Source of the DNA: Candidatus Staskawiczbacteria bacterium
Lineage (GTDB): Bacteria > Patescibacteriota > Minisyncoccia > Minisyncoccales > Staskawiczbacteraceae
NCBI GenBank assembly: GCA_903845295.1
Contig: CAIMWV010000027.1
Span: 8,819-72,818, forward strand
Direction of reading: 5' to 3'
Length of the DNA stretch: 64,000 nucleotides
Made by a program: the position numbers and the translations under genes. The stretch's first letter is position 1. The number at the start of each line of letters is the position of its first letter. A model generated the notes under the pieces. It saw nothing but the letters and a program-made list of their open reading frames with translations. It was not told the origin of the DNA and ran no database searches. Positions 9,782 through 48,026 of this stretch are shown in pieces.

Positions 9782-11317
9782 ATGAAAATGCCCAAGTTTT
9801 TAAAAAGAAAAGGAAATATCTGGATTATCGCAATTATAGTAATTTTAATTATCGCCGGGTATTTTATTTTTGGCAGGAAAAATAACGCGAGCTCCATCCA
9901 GACAGGCTTTGCCACAAAACAGAATTTGCAGGAAACCGTGCTTTCCACGGGGCAAGTGATATCCGAAACAGATATCAGTTTGAGTTTTCAGGGCAGTGGC
10001 GTTGTTGATAAAATTTCAGTGAAAGAGGGCGATAAAGTAGAACAAGGGCAGATCTTAGCTTCGCTTGATGAGTCTGGCGCGCTTGCCACTTTGACTTCAG
10101 CTCAGGGGGCTTTAGCCCAAGCCGAGGCAAATTATGAAAAACTTTTGGCAGGAGCCACTCCACAAAGCATAAAAACGGTTCAGGACTCCGTAAATTCATC
10201 CAGGCAGAATTTGATCAATGTGTATAATGGAGCATTAAATACTTTAAATAATGCCCATGCAACAATTTATAATGCTTATACAGTCGTGAAAACTTTGCAA
10301 GATAATTATTTTTTAATACAAAATCCGCAAGGTATTCAGGTTTCTAATGCCAAGAACGATATTAACAGCAATATGCAAACTGTGCAGAATGATTTAAACA
10401 TAGCTGAAACAAGCATGGCTCCGGCAGATATAGATACAGCAGTGACGCAGACTATTTTATCTCTCAATGATGCTTATGACGATATAAATATTATCAGAGC
10501 TCAGTGCGACCAGGAAATATATTATTATATAGTTACCGCCGCAGATAAGACATCTATAGATACTCAAAAAACATCTGTTAACACCGCCTTGACCGGCGTT
10601 ACTGCATTACAGCAAAATATTGCTTCTTTGAAATTAGCTTTGCAAACAGCAGAAGACCAATTAAGCGTTGCAACCGCTCCGCCGACGCAGGCAGACATTA
10701 ATTTGGCCAAGGCCCAAATACTTTCAGCTCAGGGGCAGGTTGATTCAGCTCAGACAGTCTTAAATAATTTGATTATAACTGCTCCTGAGCCGGGAACGAT
10801 TACGCAGGTGGATATCAAAGTCGGTGAACAAGCCACGCCGTCAAAGGAGGTTATGGTTTTGCAGGATATTAATAATCTGCACGCAGAAGCCGATGTGAGC
10901 GAGGCCAATGTTGCGTCTTTGCAAGTGGGCCAGTCCGTTGATTACACCTTTGATGCTTTGGGGCCGGACCAGCACTTTGCAGGAAAAGTTTTAACAATTA
11001 ACCCGGCGTCGATTGTAATTTCCGGCGTTGTAGACTATTTGGTCAAGGGGAGTTTAGATAATATTCCAGGCATTAAGCCCGGCATGACTGCAAATATGAC
11101 GATTTTAGTCGCTCAAAAAGATAACGCTCTGGCTGTACCGTCTACGGCCATAATAAATAATAACAGCAAGCAATATGTAAGAGTTATTGATGATCCAAAA
11201 ACTCTGGCGTACCACCAGGTTGAGGTCCAGACAGGATTGCAGGCGGATGGGGGATTAGTAGAAATTATTTCGGGACTCAGCGAAGGCCAGGAAATTGTAA
11301 CCTATGTAAAACCATAA
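9782..11317 (+). CDS. efflux transporter periplasmic adaptor (HlyD/MacA family)
   Basis: N-terminal TM, long coiled-coil, barrel-sandwich blocks (ITAPEPGTITQVDIKVGE); precedes the ABC ATPase and two FtsX-type permeases. Confidence 0.8.
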   Translation: MKMPKFLKRKGNIWIIAIIVILIIAGYFIFGRKNNASSIQTGFATKQNLQETVLSTGQVISETDISLSFQGSGVVDKISVKEGDKVEQGQILASLDESGALATLTSAQGALAQAEANYEKLLAGATPQSIKTVQDSVNSSRQNLINVYNGALNTLNNAHATIYNAYTVVKTLQDNYFLIQNPQGIQVSNAKNDINSNMQTVQNDLNIAETSMAPADIDTAVTQTILSLNDAYDDINIIRAQCDQEIYYYIVTAADKTSIDTQKTSVNTALTGVTALQQNIASLKLALQTAEDQLSVATAPPTQADINLAKAQILSAQGQVDSAQTVLNNLIITAPEPGTITQVDIKVGEQATPSKEVMVLQDINNLHAEADVSEANVASLQVGQSVDYTFDALGPDQHFAGKVLTINPASIVISGVVDYLVKGSLDNIPGIKPGMTANMTILVAQKDNALAVPSTAIINNNSKQYVRVIDDPKTLAYHQVEVQTGLQADGGLVEIISGLSEGQEIVTYVKP

Positions 11318-11403
11318 TGAACTTAATTGAAGTTGAGAATTTGCAGCCTTTTATGTATTTTTTAAATGAAGGGTGCGAGCACGGACAAGCTATTAATTTT
11401 TAA
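11317..11403 (+). pseudogene. ghost 5' end of the ABC ATPase gene (MNLIEVENLQ...)
   Basis: ATG overlaps the adaptor stop (TAATG). The first 9 codons are homologous to the real start at 11424 (MPLIEVENLK), mostly synonymous differences, then run into inserted DNA. Confidence 0.6.
11344..11380 (+). repeat. CAGCCTTTTAT..ATGAAGGGTGCGAGC element, copy 1
   Basis: Near-identical to 42333-42369; box AAGGGTGCGAG also at 23261-23275 (minus). Confidence 0.7.
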
Positions 11404-11423
11404 ATTTTTACATTCCAAAAATT

Positions 11424-12140
11424 ATGCCTCTTATAGAAGTCGAGAACCTTAAAAAGGATTATATTAATGACGAGGTTGTTACGCGTGTTTTGCATGACAT
11501 AAGCTTTAAGATAAACGAAGGGGAATTTGTGGCGATTATGGGGCCATCGGGGTCTGGCAAGTCCACCTTAATGCATATTTTAAGCTTTTTAGACCGGCCC
11601 ACTTCCGGCTTATATAAATTTGAAGGAAAGGATACAAAAAGTTTTAATGATGAATATCTTGCAAAATTAAGGAATGAACGAGTCGGATTTGTCTTTCAAT
11701 CTTTTAATTTATTGGCGCGCACAACCGTCTTAGACAATGTAAGGCTGCCTTTAATTTACAGCAAATTAAAGAATTATGATAAGCTGGCTGAAAAAGCATT
11801 GGCATCTGTCGGGCTTTCCCACAGATTGGAATATTTTACAAACCAGATTTCCGGCGGAGAAAAACAAAGAGTGGCGATTGCAAGAGCTTTGGTCAATAAT
11901 CCGGCTGTAATTTTTGCCGATGAGCCAACAGGAAATTTGGATTCCAAATCGGGCAACACAGTGATGTTTATTTTACAGAAATTAAATCACCAAGGCCACA
12001 CAATTATATTGGTTACTCATGAAACCGATACAGCAAATCACGCTAAAAGAATTATCCGCATTAAAGATGGCGAAATTATTTCCGACGAAAAAGTGGAAAA
12101 GAGAACTATAGCCACAGAAGATAAAGACTTGGTTAAATAA
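11424..12140 (+). CDS. ABC transporter ATP-binding protein (MacB/LolD type)
   Basis: Walker A GPSGSGKST, signature LSGGEKQR, Walker B IIFADEPT. Confidence 0.9.
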   Translation: MPLIEVENLKKDYINDEVVTRVLHDISFKINEGEFVAIMGPSGSGKSTLMHILSFLDRPTSGLYKFEGKDTKSFNDEYLAKLRNERVGFVFQSFNLLARTTVLDNVRLPLIYSKLKNYDKLAEKALASVGLSHRLEYFTNQISGGEKQRVAIARALVNNPAVIFADEPTGNLDSKSGNTVMFILQKLNHQGHTIILVTHETDTANHAKRIIRIKDGEIISDEKVEKRTIATEDKDLVK

Positions 12141-12149
12141 AAGTGTAGT

Positions 12150-13421
12150 ATGGATTTTTTAGGAACTATAAAGCTTGTTTTCAGGACTCTGCTTGCCAGA
12201 AAAGGCAGGTCGTTTTTGACTATTTTGGGAATTGTTATCGGGGTTGGCGGAGTTATTATTATAATTTCTTTGGGAGCCGGCGCGCAGAGCTTGATTTTAG
12301 GGCAGGTTACAAAACTTGGTTCTAATTTATTAAGCGTTGCGCCCGGTAAAAGTAATGAGAAAGGTCCGCCGTCACAAGTTTTTGGAATTACTGTTACAAC
12401 TTTGGCGAACAGCGATGCAGATTCTTTAAGAAGTAAAACGCAGGTTCCTCACGCTTCGGCCGTCTGCGCAATGGTCAGAGGCTCGATTACGGCCACGTGG
12501 CAGAATAAAAATGTAGATACTAATTTTACCGGCACGGAAAGCAGTTATTCAGATGTGGTAAGCTTTACAATGCAGGAGGGTCAATTTTTTAACCAGCAAG
12601 AAGAAAAGGGGAATGCTAATGTTGCGGTTTTAGGTTCTACTACGGCTGATGAATTATTTGGTGGAACCGGGGTCAGTCCGATTGGGCAAGTTATTAAGGT
12701 AAAAAGTTCTCTGCAAACACAGGCCGGCGGAATTCCTTTGAGAGTAATCGGCGTTATTGCACCTAGGGGCAGTTCATTCTTCCAAGATAACGACGACCAG
12801 GTTTTTATTCCTTTGACTATTGGCCAAGAGCAGCTTCTAGGCATACATTATTTGCAGGCAATAAACATAAAAGTTGATTCGTCAGGAAATATACAGCAGA
12901 CAATCGATGATGTTACTAGAGTTTTAAATCAAAACCACCGCATACAACGCGCTGTAGACGCGGACTTCACTGTTTACAATATTGCTGATGCAATAAGTGT
13001 TTTAAGCACCATTACAAACGCCCTCAGGCTATTTTTGACTGCAATGGCTGCAATTTCTTTGATTGTCGGCGGAATTGGAATTTTAAATATTATGTTGGCC
13101 ACCGTGGCCGAAAGAACAAGGGAAATTGGTTTGAGAAAAGCAGTTGGTGCAACAAACTCGGCAATCGCCAGGCAATTTTTACTGGAAGCAGGGGCCTTAA
13201 CTTTCCTGGGGGGAATTATAGGAATTATTATTGGCGTAATAATTTCTTATCTTATAACATTGCTGATGCATTATTTGGGATATGACTGGGCTTTTGTGGT
13301 TTCCATAACCTCGGTTTTACTAGCAGTTGGAGTTTCAATTTTAACCGGTGTGATTTTTGGTTTGTATCCGGCGTTGAAAGCATCAAAACTAAATCCAATA
13401 GACGCATTAAGGTATGAATAA
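12150..13421 (+). CDS. ABC transporter permease (MacB/FtsX family)
   Basis: N-terminal TM, periplasmic domain, C-terminal FtsX-type 3-TM block (REIGLRKAVGAT). Confidence 0.85.
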   Translation: MDFLGTIKLVFRTLLARKGRSFLTILGIVIGVGGVIIIISLGAGAQSLILGQVTKLGSNLLSVAPGKSNEKGPPSQVFGITVTTLANSDADSLRSKTQVPHASAVCAMVRGSITATWQNKNVDTNFTGTESSYSDVVSFTMQEGQFFNQQEEKGNANVAVLGSTTADELFGGTGVSPIGQVIKVKSSLQTQAGGIPLRVIGVIAPRGSSFFQDNDDQVFIPLTIGQEQLLGIHYLQAINIKVDSSGNIQQTIDDVTRVLNQNHRIQRAVDADFTVYNIADAISVLSTITNALRLFLTAMAAISLIVGGIGILNIMLATVAERTREIGLRKAVGATNSAIARQFLLEAGALTFLGGIIGIIIGVIISYLITLLMHYLGYDWAFVVSITSVLLAVGVSILTGVIFGLYPALKASKLNPIDALRYE

Positions 13422-14658
13422 CAGAAAAGCATTCAGGCAATCTATAAAAGCATTATCTGCGAACCCTGTCCGCACGGTTTTGACTACCTTGGGAATTGTG
13501 ATCGGCATTGCCACAGTCATAATGGTCTTATCAGCCGGAGCCGGCTTTAGAAGTTTGATAAATAATGAAATCCAATCTCTCGGAAGCGACACTTTATTTA
13601 TTAAAACAAGAGTCCCGCCAACAACGAAAAATCGCGCCCAGACATTAAGCCCCGGAATTGCCATTGGGATCACAAGCTTTAAACAGCGCGACTTAGACGA
13701 TATTAAAAAGTTGAACAACGTTGTTAATGATTATGGCATGGTTACCGGCATGGCGGTGGCGAGTTATAGAAATAATCAAAAGAGCGCGCTTTATTTTGGG
13801 TCTTCGTCAGAAAGATTTATTATAGACCGGCACACACTAAAAGAGGGTAGATTTTATACAAAGGCGGAAGACTCGGGAGCCGCACAGGTGGTTATTTTGG
13901 GAAGCAATATAGCAGATGATTTATTTGTTCAAGATGATCCATTGGGGAAATTACTGCGCGTCGGAAATCTAAATTTCCAGGTTATAGGAGTTTATAATTC
14001 TCAGGGTTCTGTCGGAGGCGATGGAGCAGACGACAGTATTTATATGCCATTAGCAACCGCGCAAAAAAAAATGTTAGGCGTTGATTATATAACCGTGGCG
14101 GTAGTTCAGTTAAAAAACACGAATTTGAGTGACGCCACAGCCGCGCTTATCAGGACAACTTTGAGGCATAATCACAATATAACAAATCCTGACAAAGATG
14201 ATTTTATTGTAATGACTCAGGCGCAGGTTCTTGATATTTATAATACAATCTTTAACGGAATAACTATTTTGCTTATCTGCATTGCCTCTATTTCTTTGGT
14301 TGTCGGCGGAGTCGGAATTATGAATATTATGTATGTGGTTGTTACCGAGAGAACAGCTGAAATAGGATTAAAAAAAGCGCTGGGGGCAACCAACTCAGAC
14401 ATCCTGAAAGAATTTTTAATAGAATCTATTTTAGTCACGGTTTTAGGCGGAATCATAGGCATTTTATTCGGCTCTATTTTAAGCTGGCTGGTTTCTATTA
14501 TTGCAAATTCTAATGGACTGATGTGGATATTTACAGTGCCGCTATATGCAGTAGTTATCGCCGTTGGAGTTTCTGGCACCATTGGAATGGCTTTCGGGGT
14601 TTTGCCGGCAAGGTCGGCCGCAAAATTAGATCCAATAGAGGCCTTGCGGTATGAATAA
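13414..14658 (+). CDS. ABC transporter permease (MacB/FtsX family), paralog
   Basis: Same architecture (AEIGLKKALGAT); 8-nt overlap with the upstream permease. Confidence 0.85.
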   Translation: MNNRKAFRQSIKALSANPVRTVLTTLGIVIGIATVIMVLSAGAGFRSLINNEIQSLGSDTLFIKTRVPPTTKNRAQTLSPGIAIGITSFKQRDLDDIKKLNNVVNDYGMVTGMAVASYRNNQKSALYFGSSSERFIIDRHTLKEGRFYTKAEDSGAAQVVILGSNIADDLFVQDDPLGKLLRVGNLNFQVIGVYNSQGSVGGDGADDSIYMPLATAQKKMLGVDYITVAVVQLKNTNLSDATAALIRTTLRHNHNITNPDKDDFIVMTQAQVLDIYNTIFNGITILLICIASISLVVGGVGIMNIMYVVVTERTAEIGLKKALGATNSDILKEFLIESILVTVLGGIIGILFGSILSWLVSIIANSNGLMWIFTVPLYAVVIAVGVSGTIGMAFGVLPARSAAKLDPIEALRYE

Positions 14659-42212: not shown

Positions 42213-42307
42213 TAGTGCCGGGAGTGCAGGGTTTGATACTTTAATTAGAGCTCTTTTTTTACGGAAAAAGAAATGGTAAAATACGACAATATGCAAAAAA
42301 TTTATTT

Positions 42308-42358
42308 ATGAATAAAAAGCTTATATTTTATACAGCCTTTTATATATTTTATATATGA
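42308..42358 (+). pseudogene. ghost 5' end of membrane-protein gene (MNKKLIFYT...)
   Basis: Homologous to the real start at 42419 (MNKKIIFYI), then runs into the CAGCCTTTTAT element. Confidence 0.55.
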
Positions 42359-42369
42359 AGGGTGCAAGC
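42333..42369 (+). repeat. CAGCCTTTTAT..ATGAAGGGTGCAAGC element, copy 2
   Basis: Aligns with 11344-11380. Confidence 0.7.
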
Positions 42370-42418
42370 AGTCTTCGTTTATTTATTATGACAGGGCGCG
42401 GAGCAAAATAAAATATTT

Positions 42419-42772
42419 ATGAACAAAAAGATAATTTTTTATATAGTTTTGATAATTGTTATATTGATTTTCGTATTTTTGAGCCAGCAGGTATATTCAA
42501 GGTGGGTGGGAAAAACCCTTATTTCCGGCATAACAAGCCGGGCATCGGCATACCTGGCAAAAGGGGCTAATTGGGCTATGTCCGACATATACCCGAAAGT
42601 AAACAATCAATTGAAAAGTGGGGGAGAGACAATGCAAAATAAAGCCGAACAAACAAAACAAAATATTTTTTCTGACGCCGCAAAAAATATTGGAAATTAT
42701 TTTTCCGGAATTGCAAATAGTATTCTCCATCCGGGAACTGCGCAAAGCTCCCAAACTTCAACCGGCCGATAA
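42419..42772 (+). CDS. membrane-anchored hypothetical protein
   Basis: N-terminal TM IIFYIVLIIVILIFVFL. Confidence 0.5.
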   Translation: MNKKIIFYIVLIIVILIFVFLSQQVYSRWVGKTLISGITSRASAYLAKGANWAMSDIYPKVNNQLKSGGETMQNKAEQTKQNIFSDAAKNIGNYFSGIANSILHPGTAQSSQTSTGR

Positions 42773-42914: not shown

Positions 42915-43889
42915 ATGGAAAAATCATCAAAGCCAATAAAAGAACATCTGCAAGACTTTTTAGATTATTGTGAAGTTGAAAAAGGTTTGCGCGACAATAC
43001 TCAAGAGAATTATAAAAATTATCTGCAGAAATTTTTTAATTGGTTAGATCAGGCCAAATTAAGCTCTCTGCTCCCCCATCAATTGACCTCAGACCACATT
43101 TGGGCCTATAGATTATACCTTTCCAGGACCCCAAGCCCGGCTACTGGCAAATTGCTGTCAAAAGGCACCCAGAACTACTATTTAATCGCTTTAAGGGCCT
43201 TTTTAGGCTATTTTGTGGCTAAAGACGTACTTTCACTGCCTCCGGACAAAATATCGCTCTCAAAGCCAGATAGAGGCTCAAAAAGCATAAAATTCCTTAG
43301 TTTAGACCAGATTGGCAAGCTTTTAGCCTCTATTGAGCCAAAAGACGATATAAGCACCCGCGACAGGGCCATTTTGGAGGCTTTTTTCTCAACCGGCCTT
43401 AGAATTGCCGAACTTGTATCCTTAAATCTTGAACAGTTTAATAGCTTAAAAGATAAAAAAGATATGGAGCTGGGCGTTATCGGCAAGGGCGGCAAACCTC
43501 GCGTGGTTTATTTTTCAGAACGAGCTTTAAACTATATCAGAAAATATCTTGAAATACGAAACGATGTTAAGCATGCCAATCAAAAAGCCCTATTTATAAA
43601 CTTTAGGGATAAAAAAGATGATGCAGATGCCAGGCTCACACCAAGATCTATTGAAAGAATGGTCAAAAAATATGCCCTGCTTTCAGGCGTTCCGATTTTT
43701 ACTACCCCACATACCTTACGCCACTCATATGCAACAGATTTATTAAACCAAGGAGTTGACCTGCGCAGCATCCAAGAATTTCTGGGACACAGTAACATTG
43801 CCACAACGCAAATTTATACGCACGTAACCAACAAACGTTTAAGGGATATACATCATCAGTTTCATAGTGACCCTGATAAAAATAATTAA
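42915..43889 (+). CDS. tyrosine site-specific recombinase (XerC/D-like)
   Basis: N-terminal SAM-like core-binding domain; STGLRIAEL (Arg I), HTLRHSYAT (H-x-x-R), LGHSNIATTQIYTHV (catalytic Tyr). Confidence 0.85.
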   Translation: MEKSSKPIKEHLQDFLDYCEVEKGLRDNTQENYKNYLQKFFNWLDQAKLSSLLPHQLTSDHIWAYRLYLSRTPSPATGKLLSKGTQNYYLIALRAFLGYFVAKDVLSLPPDKISLSKPDRGSKSIKFLSLDQIGKLLASIEPKDDISTRDRAILEAFFSTGLRIAELVSLNLEQFNSLKDKKDMELGVIGKGGKPRVVYFSERALNYIRKYLEIRNDVKHANQKALFINFRDKKDDADARLTPRSIERMVKKYALLSGVPIFTTPHTLRHSYATDLLNQGVDLRSIQEFLGHSNIATTQIYTHVTNKRLRDIHHQFHSDPDKNN

Positions 43890-47346: not shown

Positions 47347-47407
47347 CTGTCGCACAATGGGTCGCACAATCGACAACAGTGTTGACACACTATTGTCGCC
47401 TAATCAA
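47347..47407 (-). repeat. cluster of boundary-motif copies (tandem CTGTCGCACAAT GGGTCGCACAAT, palindrome CGACAACAGTG-ttgaca-CACTATTGTCG, variant TATTGTCGCCTAATCAA)
   Basis: Read directly; four motif-related units within 61 nt. Confidence 0.75.
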
Positions 47408-47473
47408 TATTAAGCAACATTTTTGCAAAAAAGCCGCTTAATATTAAGACGCTGGCAAGTTTTCAGGTTTATA

Positions 47474-47488
47474 CTTGTCGCACAATTA
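47474..47488 (-). repeat. module-boundary motif (CTTGTCGCACAATTA)
   Basis: Core TTGTCGCACAAT exact. Confidence 0.75.
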
Positions 47489-47531: not shown

Positions 47532-48026
47532 ATGGCGAAAGAAAATTTTAATATTGTGACTTTGGTAAACAATGACGGATGCTTTGATTTGCAATTCAGG
47601 AAAGACACGAGGCACGAAAGGACCAACTCCCCCACTTACTACAGATGGAAGGCGCAATTTATAGTTACTTCCCCGAAAGATAATGTTAAAATTTTAGAAA
47701 AAATTAAAAATGAGATGGGCTGCGGCGAAGTAACCGTTTCAAAAGACCAGGCAAGGTTCTCAGTACAGAAAATCGGCGATATTGCGGAAAATATCGTGCC
47801 GTTCTTCAGAAAAAATTCTCTGTCGGATAAAAAGAAAAAAGATTTTGAGCTTTGGGCAAAAGGAGTCGAAGTAATCCAGAGGAATAAAGGAAAATATTTG
47901 GCCAGCTGGAAAAAGAATGACATATGCACCCTCATAGAAATCCACAAGTCATCAGCAAAATACAAAACGCATCCAAGAACTCCTAAGTGGTTAGACCTAG
48001 CAAAATCATTATCGAGAACAGCATAG
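47532..48026 (+). CDS. free-standing single-motif LAGLIDADG homing endonuclease
   Basis: LVNNDGCF (LAGLIDADG-like), IVPFFRKNSLSDKKKKDFELWAKGVEVI typical of the family; 164 aa. Confidence 0.7.
   Translation: MAKENFNIVTLVNNDGCFDLQFRKDTRHERTNSPTYYRWKAQFIVTSPKDNVKILEKIKNEMGCGEVTVSKDQARFSVQKIGDIAENIVPFFRKNSLSDKKKKDFELWAKGVEVIQRNKGKYLASWKKNDICTLIEIHKSSAKYKTHPRTPKWLDLAKSLSRTA

Follow-up and report, generated by a model that had tools for sequence, protein, structure and literature searches.

Phages and genomic islands that integrate into tRNA or protein genes carry their own, often diverged, copy of the gene end, which regenerates the gene, and they leave a partial ghost copy at the other junction; these insertions run to kilobases, code for an integrase and have a single target. 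MITEs are 50–500 bp long and generate duplications of 2–10 bp, and REPs make no target duplication. REPs carry a conserved GTAG or CGTC tetranucleotide at one end (PMC3733652). In insertion with long target duplication (Nobusato et al. 2000; Furuta, Abe and Kobayashi 2010, PMC2853133), the insert lies between direct repeats of more than 30 bp that are single at the empty site of a relative, and in many cases they include the start or stop of translation, which leaves the gene undestroyed. These events occur mostly in naturally competent bacteria by an unknown mechanism, and the published inserts are kilobases of restriction-modification genes, unique events with repeats of 46 to over 400 bp (PMC2853133). 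IS1549 and IS1634 (IS1634 family, formerly IS4) are the only insertion sequences reported with long direct repeats (8–514 bp), for which there is no mechanistic model (PMC2266710). In Ca. Staskawiczbacteria, the scattered tigRNA units of TIGR-Tas have palindromic stems with CUU at the stem base, enclosing box C, two spacers, a ~9-nt loop and box D, and tigRNA guides can repress transcription at gene starts (bioRxiv 10.64898/2026.09.09.750476).

In the window, the whole 64-kb stretch of DNA that was analysed, a hairpin repeat, hereafter H, is located nine codons into an ABC-transporter ATPase gene, and this gene keeps an intact start (Table 1). As the original prediction had it, the 5′ end of the gene is duplicated, with one copy at ATG 11317, which overlaps the adaptor stop TAA (11315–11317), and the other 107 nt downstream at ATG 11424. 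The upstream copy, or ghost start, is ATGAACTTAATTGAAGTTGAGAATTTG followed by CAGCC (MNLIEVENL), and the real start is ATGCCTCTTATAGAAGTCGAGAACCTT followed by AAAAAG (MPLIEVENL). The homology proposed between them holds for codons 2–9 (two identical, five synonymous and one non-synonymous), but the tenth codon (CAG versus AAA), which had been included, is already part of the repeat. A chance origin of this ghost was excluded, as a start-led peptide of 7/8 identity appeared in 0 of 2,000 shuffles of the 290 nt upstream. The ATPase has more than 100 orthologues at 86–92% identity, some of them named Ca. Staskawiczbacteria. Four contigs, with DNA from four ENA samples and named in two different styles, carry the 107-nt insert at 100% identity, which rules out an assembly artefact at this site.

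Table 1. Features at the two H-bearing sites of the window, with the evidence for each
Feature	Coordinates	Strand	Evidence
Site 1: periplasmic adaptor gene (HlyD/membrane-fusion family)	9782..11317	+	ORF list; Pfam HlyD_D23, HlyD_3, Biotin_lipoyl_2; syntenic in relatives
Site 1: T1, upstream copy of the ~74-nt duplicated target	11270..11343	+	In-register display, period 107; T1/T2 local alignment
Site 1: ghost ORF, 28 codons (MNLIEVENLQPFMYFLNEGCEHGQAINF, then stop)	11317..11403	+	Same open frame in L030 (28 aa) and L072 (33 aa)
Site 1: hairpin repeat H	11344..11381	+	63.4 bits; RNA fold -12.4 kcal/mol, z = -2.4
Site 1: T2, downstream target copy	11377..11450	+	Alignment of 11377-11405 with L055 adaptor 3′ end
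Site 1: ABC transporter ATP-binding protein (MacB/LolD type), start-duplicated gene	11424..12140	+	Pfam ABC_tran, 6e-35
Site 1: two MacB-type permease genes, completing the operon	12150..14658 (12150-13421, 13414-14658)	+	Pfam MacB_PCD, FtsX
Site 2: T1, non-coding upstream sequence and ghost ATG 42308	42255..42332	+	Family D2; ghost codons 22/22 identical to L074
Site 2: hairpin repeat H, second copy	42333..42370	+	65.8 bits; fold -11.7 kcal/mol
Site 2: T2, with active start	42366..42443	+	Uninterrupted start in L077, L078

The H core at site 1 covers 11344–11376, and conservation continues through GAGCA to 11381. T1, whose 5′ limit is approximate, contains the ghost start and, before it, the final 47 nt of the adaptor gene, which still function there. 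T2 consists of a 47-nt decayed copy of an adaptor-gene 3′ end (11377–11423) and the active start with the first nine codons (11424–11450). The segment 11377–11405 matched the adaptor 3′ end of the relative L055 at 22/28 positions (P<0.002; score reached by 0 of 500 shuffles) whereas the adaptor end of the window itself did not align with it (P = 0.75). Because 11377–11423 is a decayed adaptor 3′ end, the whole insert amounts to H plus an in-register target duplication of ~74 nt. An element of about 80 nt had been postulated here, but only 33–38 nt are common to copies, and the 47 nt that follow derive from an adaptor gene. The ghost ORF passes from the old stop-overlapping ATG through the hairpin to a stop 20 nt upstream of the real ATG. 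A promoter and terminator scan of the inserts at both sites found nothing exceeding shuffles.

H is an imperfect palindrome, CAGCCTTTTAT-N11-ATGAAGGGTGC(GAG), that starts with (A)CAGCC and finishes with GGTGCGAG. Its arms, CAGCCTTTTAT and ATGAAGGGTGC, are terminal inverted repeats of ten pairs, with two G-U pairs and one bulged G, and only 11–13 AT-rich nt lie between them. About 35 copies were found in the collections searched, two of them in the window, and all are on Ca. Staskawiczbacteria-type contigs. The two window copies share 89% identity over 38 nt, where 0 matches are expected, so the recurrence noted earlier at 42333 stands. Copies lie in both orientations to genes, and their reading frames relative to the ghost ATG vary (offsets 19–83 nt). 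The stems are near-invariant, with 0–1 mismatches, even in copies outside the selection by the search pattern, which is odd for old selfish copies. Pair counting detected no covariation in H, because the stems, partly fixed by the search pattern, are invariant. Contig breaks tend to fall near H (e.g., L082 and L083), and at three loci a CAGG motif, possibly by chance, lies ~105 nt upstream of it.

A covariance model of H detected no decayed copies in 304 kb, and 325 kb of related DNA contained neither a parent element nor lone H arms flanking a larger element. No copy was present in viral contigs, where the scan gave only an unrelated 36-nt coding match. Rfam searches of the window and six loci at the gathering threshold returned tRNA and rRNA only, with no match at H. 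The genes of the window are ordinary chromosomal genes; a transposase, nuclease or full-length parent element was not found, no transposase domain occurred among window ORFs of at least 100 aa, no RAYT (Y1 transposase) gene was seen within the window and 20-kb flanks, and Pfam scans of the window contained no Nop-domain gene. A free-standing LAGLIDADG gene (47532–48026) is one candidate for an enzyme that co-occurs with H.

We measured the offset between duplicated sequences as the best alignment of upstream with downstream sequence for each of 33 H copies. In 21 of them, the sequence 5′ of H reappears 3′ of it at an offset of 101–115 nt (P ~1e-19); L004b and L072, both at 108 nt, are further cases near 107 nt. 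The in-register structure T1-H-T2 recurs with one common hairpin at at least 15 loci. Copies of the repeat beside ghost starts, for which the original prediction proposed a search, do exist elsewhere. The duplicated targets comprise gene starts, the 23S rRNA promoter (L005, L021 and L025) and gene 3′ ends, such as that of an IscS-type gene (L010 and L026), and the unit length is constant whichever portion of T remains recognisable. Short conversion patches between T1 and T2 are present in L030 and L021.

Perfect duplications occur at L034 (73/73 nt) and L008 (75/75 nt). Both are in arrays that already held H, with no fresh insertion found at a naive site, and the left limit of the duplication is therefore not independently defined. 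At L034, the two flanking H copies differ at 6 of 33 positions, which favours a fresh insertion over a tandem copy (P = 9e-4). The same array has an unrelated 73-nt segment between two H copies (H1-Ta-H2), and H3-Tb after an identical Tb. Fourteen H copies have no duplication, and several of these are 5–14 nt from a start codon. GC at +4/+5 after H was found at 13/15 duplicated loci versus 1/14 others (P = 2e-5); duplicated and unduplicated copies may represent two sub-families or two insertion modes. The recurrence of this hairpin with duplicated targets at many genes suggests a small mobile element of a kind not yet described.

Site 1 is uninterrupted and lacks the hairpin in five relatives (L052, L053/54, L055, L069 and L071), in which the adaptor stop and the ATPase ATG are 1–67 nt apart, in agreement with the idea that the insert entered a junction that had been tight. 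Two further lineages, judged from gene coordinates, also lack the spacer and small ORF, and the insert is carried only by window/L044/L030 and L072/73; a spacer with a conserved small ORF in all relatives, which the original prediction had named as the sign of a leader peptide, is thus not what the relatives show. Direct repeats of more than 30 bp flank H at both sites and are single at the empty sites of relatives, those for site 2 being L077 and L078. The ATPase site is filled in lineages with saturated four-fold sites (window versus L072, 53%), in which the upstream halves of T2 are unrelated. A close hairpin-less relative of the window lineage was not found for site 1, and all the empty-site relatives checked are at or near four-fold-site saturation (51–66%), so that the nearest-allele test is of limited power beyond the two ghost segments.

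Comparison of ghost and active codons at seven loci (63 codons) identified 29 synonymous and 9 non-synonymous differences. Free drift of the ghost would give ~30 non-synonymous differences in 63 codons, and a value of 9 was reached by 0 of 400 simulations. At L037, the 12 nucleotide differences in 14 codons, Ser TCA/AGC and Arg CGT/AGA among them, are all synonymous. Every coding case retains an intact ghost ATG, and the ghost 3′ ends are likewise still protein-like. The window ATPase ghost is closer to the functional start of L055 (22/27) than to its own active start (17/27); both ghost halves flanking H are L055-like and the active halves are not. These patterns support the view that ghost and active start are two alleles shaped by coding selection, as had been suggested together with a donor-like allele, and recombination between lineages is the likeliest cause. 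The synonymous bias and the foreign-allele affinity of the ghost segments also agree with a gene-end copy on the element side that is a diverged allele restoring the gene. Identity between the window and L030 is a mosaic of 81–99%, which shows frequent recombination. Across the ghost and the upstream half of T2, the same pair differs at 14/74 positions outside H, compared with 19.8% of four-fold ATPase sites; because it diverges at about the neutral rate, the ghost is not under strong constraint. A diversity-generating retroelement was rejected, as the differences read from the sequence are not adenine-specific, and translational read-through or bypass was rejected on offsets that are not multiples of three and on in-frame stops.

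A second ghost start, overlooked in the original prediction, lies beside the repeat at 42333. When all ORFs of at least 80 aa in the 64 kb were scanned, no ghost start other than these two emerged. The ghost ATG 42308 (MNKKLIFY; ORF 42308–42358) precedes ATG 42419 (MNKKIIFY) by 111 nt, matched in 0 of 2,000 shuffles, and the latter opens the gene of a 117-aa membrane-anchored protein (42419–42772). The recognisable repeat part of T1 is 42293–42332; T2 shares 5 nt with H (42366–42370, AAGCA, a GAGCA-type tail), and its resemblance to T1 is confined to the last 41 nt (42403–42443) of 78. The functional start of L074 matches the ghost codons at 22/22 and the active copy at 18/22, and the upstream part of T1 is 91% identical to L074. 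T2 is foreign over its first 35 nt, and identity is back just past T2 (62/66). L074 and L076 are also interrupted at this gene start, by a 129-nt insert and by H, respectively. A XerC/D-like gene (42915–43889) lies outside the site 2 repeats, with synteny seen in L074 and L076; the H-less L078 has no recombinase gene at the corresponding place. A donor-like uninterrupted allele for T2 was not found in L077 or L078. Because T2 resembles T1 over only 41 of its 78 nt, despite a ghost of young appearance, a simple in-place duplication is insufficient at this site without import from another lineage.

We propose, with a probability of about 0.5, that H is a tiny non-autonomous palindromic insertion element of 33–38 bp with a near-fixed target duplication of ~70–80 bp, and that alleles at its sites were exchanged by recombination. 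Integration, which we infer to proceed by a staggered cut made by a putative enzyme, would duplicate ~70–80 bp of target and yield T1-H-T2, the two target copies being offset by ~107 nt. With a duplication of this length, an insertion as deep as ~50 nt into a coding sequence (83 nt in L004b) would regenerate in T2 a complete start with its upstream context. Insertion in a promoter or near a gene 3′ end would likewise regenerate the target, and such insertions would therefore survive. The upstream copy would be left behind as a ghost start; at site 1, the old stop-overlapping ATG 11317 would now open the 28-codon ORF that ends 20 nt before ATG 11424. Homologous recombination between diverged Staskawiczbacteria lineages most likely carried the insertion across lineages, and the same recombination may have replaced flanking functional sequence up to the heterologous hairpin, which would give ghost and active segments separate allelic histories and would account for the allelic difference.

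A tentative alternative is that the whole ~107-nt unit, H plus ~74 nt of replacement target end, moves, perhaps in the form of a small circle or a single strand, and enters the allelic site of another lineage through T homology, or another H by H-by-H recombination. The ghost would then be the resident start, functional until insertion, and the active start would come with the element, corresponding to the earlier suggestion of an element that carries a copy of its target. Site 2 has the expected pattern, in that T1 matches L074, the first 35 nt of T2 are foreign and identity resumes after T2, but the numbers are small and 18/22 is within the 80–94% range of the downstream gene. The H1-Ta-H2 arrangement at L034 looks as if an H+T unit had entered at H, and H3-Tb following an identical Tb, the constant unit length whatever remnant of T is recognisable, and the filling of the same ATPase site in saturated lineages with unrelated T2 upstream halves fit as well. 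At site 1, however, the foreign (L055-like) allele occupies both ghost halves flanking H rather than the whole of T2, a pattern that ordinary recombination, or a crossover where the gene begins, could produce as well. In addition, the first arrival at each new locus would still require a duplication-making event, and neither an enzyme nor a free unit is known. It is a speculative suggestion that H-led ~107-nt units form a new class of "self-rescuing" mobile DNA, in which a replacement copy of the interrupted gene end or promoter is carried, or made by a fixed ~74-nt ruler, and which homes into the same site in other lineages, leaving the resident copy as a ghost and H as the junction between alleles of different species.

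It is improbable that the target was simply duplicated in place and the ghost then decayed neutrally, without exchange between lineages. The perfect duplications at L034 and L008 indicate copies identical at the start, and the ghosts of the window and L030 do diverge at a neutral rate. However, the deficit of non-synonymous changes, the exclusively synonymous differences at L037 and the protein-like ghost 3′ ends are difficult to obtain by decay, and at site 2 the ghost has 0/22 changes relative to L074, yet most of the upstream part of T2 is unalignable with T1.

We consider it slightly less probable still that ghost ORF and hairpin form a regulatory device with a ghost peptide under selection, such as an upstream ORF relaying translational coupling, an attenuator or an RNA thermometer. 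The uniformly intact ghost ATG, the conserved H stems and the site 1 ghost ORF, open through H with its stop 7–20 nt before the real ATG in the window, L030 and L072, would suit such a leader. Against it stand the lack of the insert in most relatives, the varying frame of H relative to the ghost ATG and its occurrence in both gene orientations, the presence of a promoter and gene 3′ ends among the duplicated targets, the lack of pair covariation and of an Rfam match, and the neutral rate of ghost evolution.

The remaining candidate, a one-off homology-facilitated illegitimate recombination after DNA uptake, one of the two mechanisms named in the original prediction, or an assembly chimera of two strains, would explain copies that look like different alleles and contigs that break near H, but it predicts arbitrary junctions instead of a common offset and an in-register structure with one hairpin, and with the insert identical across independent samples and the same locus filled in the diverged L030, L044 and L072, it is very improbable here and is refuted by the family data as a general explanation.

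If the insertion-element reading is true, no smaller element would be known that comes with a long, ruler-like target duplication, and the H family would allow the unexplained insertion with long target duplication to be studied in a repeatable model with many loci. Insertion within the first codons of an essential-type operon gene could then be harmless, and H insertions would create tandem promoters, upstream ORFs and uncoupled operon junctions in small CPR genomes. The ghosts would serve as dated "fossil" alleles for tracing recombination among uncultured lineages. For annotation, start codons and short ORFs adjoining such hairpins would then be scars.

Among the known systems, tigRNA units share with H the bacterial group, a palindromic stem with CUU at its base and a scattered distribution, but the H interior of 11–13 AT-rich nt has no box C/D, and a TIGR-Tas guide unit was rejected on this architecture. 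As in integrative elements with a target-end copy, a diverged gene-end copy restores the gene and a ghost remains; unlike in those elements, only H, and no integrase gene, lies between T1 and T2 and each locus has its own target. Like MITEs and REP/REPIN sequences (Correia, RUP, RPE and REP), H is short and non-autonomous, occurs in many copies, forms a hairpin and is found mainly at gene borders, potentially in transcribed regions. It has the terminal inverted repeats of MITEs, but a duplication of ~70–80 bp in place of 2–10 bp; it is a multi-copy imperfect palindrome of 20–40 nt like REP/REPIN, but without the GTAG/CGTC head of REPs. Its duplication is twice its own length. IS1549 and IS1634 also produce long direct repeats upon insertion, but these full-length elements encode a DDE transposase and their repeats vary widely in length, whereas the H arms enclose 11–13 nt and no DDE transposase gene. 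Insertion with long target duplication has in common with H the long direct repeats, the single copy at the empty site and the spared gene; H differs from it in being one hairpin of 33–38 bp, reused at many loci, with a near-constant duplication of ~70–80 bp.

The ATG at 11317 opens MNLIEVENL, and the ABC ATPase itself starts 107 nt downstream at 11424 with MPLIEVENL. As originally predicted, the upstream copy is a ghost of the ATPase start: of the eight codons after the ATG, two are identical, five differ synonymously and one non-synonymously, and the match was equalled in 0/2000 shuffles of the upstream region. The sequence directly 3′ of this ghost, CAGCCTTTTATGTATTTTTTAAATGAAGGGTGCGAGCA (11344–11381), likewise recurs as predicted, at 42333–42370 with 89% identity and no copy expected by chance. 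There it adjoins a second ghost start, missed by the prediction, in which the ATG at 42308 (MNKKLIFY) duplicates that at 42419 (MNKKIIFY), the start of a small membrane-anchored protein gene, at an offset of 111 nt. The window contains only these two ghost starts, referred to as sites 1 and 2. An assembly artefact was ruled out for the site-1 insert because four contigs, from as many ENA samples, carry it at 100% identity. Two short contigs of the same strain (L082 and L083) end 115–172 nt upstream of the ATPase ATG, just before the insert, and the gene caller annotates the ghost-frame ORF there as a gene whose end lies 20 nt short of the ATPase; these breaks show how such scars fragment assemblies and yield spurious small genes.

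The recurring sequence, H, is an imperfect palindrome composed of CAGCCTTTTAT, a variable AT-rich loop of 11–13 nt and ATGAAGGGTGC, usually followed by GAG, with a potential fold of ten pairs, one bulged G and two G–U pairs. A search pattern built from the two arms gave matches in three Ca. Staskawiczbacteria genomes and, in metagenome contigs, about 28 true copies; none was found in viral contigs. The original observation is confirmed and extends to a family. Copies obtained outside the pattern selection had arm changes at just 0–1 positions, a covariance model detected no decayed copies in 304 kb, and Rfam gave no match at H. The arms remain intact whereas the ghost diverges. Irregular copies also occur. 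In L035 (minus strand, ~2700–2770), H is flanked by a further left arm (CAGCCTTCTAT) and a further right arm (ATGAAGGGCGC), resembling one H nested within another, and in L028 (minus strand, near the second H) an extra right arm lies 15 nt after H.

For each H copy, we aligned the 110 nt upstream with the 190 nt downstream. The best alignment had an offset of 101–115 nt in 21 of 33 copies (P about 1e-19), a regularity that did not bear out the illegitimate recombination originally suggested; two cases found later (L004b and L072) both had an offset of 108. The layout is in register, with an upstream (T1) and a downstream (T2) copy of a target of ~70–80 nt on either side of H. These copies are identical over 75 nt in L008 and over 73 nt in L034, where the two adjoining H copies differ at 6/33 positions (P = 9e-4 for a plain tandem copy followed by mutation). 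Genes with duplicated starts, judged from N-terminal sequences alone, appear to encode two ABC ATPases and RodA-like, pilin-like, lysyl-tRNA-synthetase-like and other proteins, with the insertion point 19–83 nt after the ATG. The 3′ end of an IscS-like gene was also duplicated, as was the sigma-70-type promoter of the 23S–5S rRNA operon in three lineages (L005 at 2499–2640, L021, and L025). In these lineages H lies within the −10 region of a TTGACA-N17-TATACT promoter, leaving two tandem promoters ~110 nt apart. No duplication was detectable at 14 H copies, several of them 5–14 nt from a start codon in either orientation, and GC at +4/+5 after H was found at 13/15 duplicated loci versus 1/14 others (P = 2e-5). 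The bias to gene ends and promoters would arise because the target duplication is long: only insertions whose duplicate restores a complete gene end or promoter would survive, an argument made earlier for long target duplications around restriction-modification genes (PMC2853133).

The site-1 insert had been read as an element of about 80 nt. This reading fails, because H copies have only 33–38 nt in common and the 47 nt from H to the active ATG (11377–11423) align with the adaptor 3′ end of a relative, L055 (22/28; 0/500 shuffles); they gave no alignment with the window's own adaptor end. The insert consists of H and a second copy of the junction, placed in register.

Among relatives, the uninterrupted adaptor–ATPase junction was found in five lineages (L052, L053/54, L055, L069, and L071), with the adaptor stop 1–67 nt from the ATPase ATG and no H; two further lineages look uninterrupted by gene coordinates. 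The window strain has a filled site, as do L044 (94% nucleotide identity) and L030 (88%). It is also filled in L072/L073, a lineage in which four-fold degenerate sites are saturated relative to the window (53%). There, one arm of H is altered (CCC for CCT), and T2 sequence 5′ of the ATG is similar to the lineage's own AT-rich spacer; this same position was probably filled in a separate event. The spacer of L071 (2934–3000) contains a 20-bp perfect palindrome centred on GCGGCCGC, and that of L072 (671–765) is a 95-nt AT-rich palindromic sequence upstream of the ghost start. At site 2, L077 and L078 have an uninterrupted start. L074 (2896–3031) and L075 carry a different, 129-nt insertion right after ATGAAC, with a 12-bp AT palindrome (GTAGAAAAAATT...AATTTTTTCTAC); the real start is a GTG located 135 nt downstream of the ghost ATG. 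The start of this gene seems to be an insertion hot spot for palindromic sequences.

The proposal that ghost and active copies are different alleles held. Across seven loci, 38/63 codons differed, 29 synonymously and 9 non-synonymously, compared with ~30 non-synonymous differences expected for a simulated freely drifting ghost (0/400 runs as low as 9). All 12 differences in 14 codons of L037 are synonymous, including Ser TCA/AGC and Arg CGT/AGA, and ghost 3′ ends are likewise protein-like (KVLLSIIKKIREIS versus KVLPGIVKKIRDIS). The site-1 ghost start (T1) is closer to the L055-type allele (22/27) than to its own active start (17/27), and the decayed adaptor end in T2 is also L055-like, which active segments are not. 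The site-2 ghost matches the functional start of L074 at 22/22, with 91% identity in the upstream part of T1; active codons match at 18/22, and T2 is unrelated to T1 over its first 35 nt. Between the window and L030, the insert outside H differs at 14/74 positions, a rate near that of ATPase four-fold sites (19.8%), and the ghost is without visible constraint. Three of the four synonymous ghost differences cluster in a single 15-nt patch that matches L030's own active copy exactly and looks like a conversion; L021 has a similar patch of 31 nt. The window/L030 alignment is a mosaic of 81–99% identity, indicating that exchange between lineages is common.

The simplest reading is an exact duplication followed by exchange between diverged lineages. 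The duplication would have been exact when made, as in L034, and later exchange, through either transfer of the filled allele by homologous recombination or flank replacement extending to the heterologous hairpin, would have given ghost and active segments separate histories. An unrelated 73-nt segment between two H copies in L034 hints at a less likely alternative, in which the ~107-nt unit as a whole is mobile, a cassette that brings its own replacement copy of the target. No enzyme for H was found in the window, where genes of the ordinary chromosomal kind are accompanied by one for a XerC/D-like recombinase and one for a free-standing LAGLIDADG endonuclease, and no parent element turned up in 325 kb of related DNA.

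The window also contains nine exact copies of the 9-mer TTGTGCGAC (longer form yTTATTGTGCGACAAA), mostly just 3′ of stop codons or terminators on the gene strand; with one mismatch there were 21 matches versus 9.8 expected. In L074, L077 and L078 the motif is likewise present 5′ of the site-2 gene, and L023 and L072 contain it as well (there TTGCGCGAC, one mismatch). It could be an uptake-signal-like or promoter/terminator motif. Three copies (47349–47485) lie just upstream of the LAGLIDADG gene, which is syntenic in contigs with an identical copy of the site-2 protein. Genes are almost all plus-strand before ~43.9–44.0 kb and almost all minus-strand after it, and this switch may mark a replication origin or terminus region.

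Positions of genes and motif copies in the window
Feature	Position	Strand	Remark
Adaptor gene, HlyD-type	9782–11317	+	stop TAA overlaps ATG 11317
XerC/D-like recombinase gene	42915–43889		at gene-orientation switch
Free-standing LAGLIDADG homing-endonuclease gene	47532–48026	+	within block of minus-strand genes
9-mer TTGTGCGAC	5430, 25689, 41451, 42201	+	exact match
9-mer TTGTGCGAC	43936, 47357, 47369, 47485, 61527	-	exact match

TIGR stem-loop guide RNAs, known from the same bacterial group, were rejected on architecture. The nearest descriptions to H are the "insertion with long target duplication" (PMC2853133), IS1549/IS1634, which make long direct repeats on insertion (PMC2266710), and small palindromic repeats of the MITE/REP type. 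Unlike these, H has no gene-sized insert, no transposase between its ends, no short duplication as in MITEs, and no GTAG/CGTC head of the kind given for REP sequences. We place H among the small palindromic insertion elements as a new variant, distinguished by the ruler-like duplication of ~74 bp of its target.
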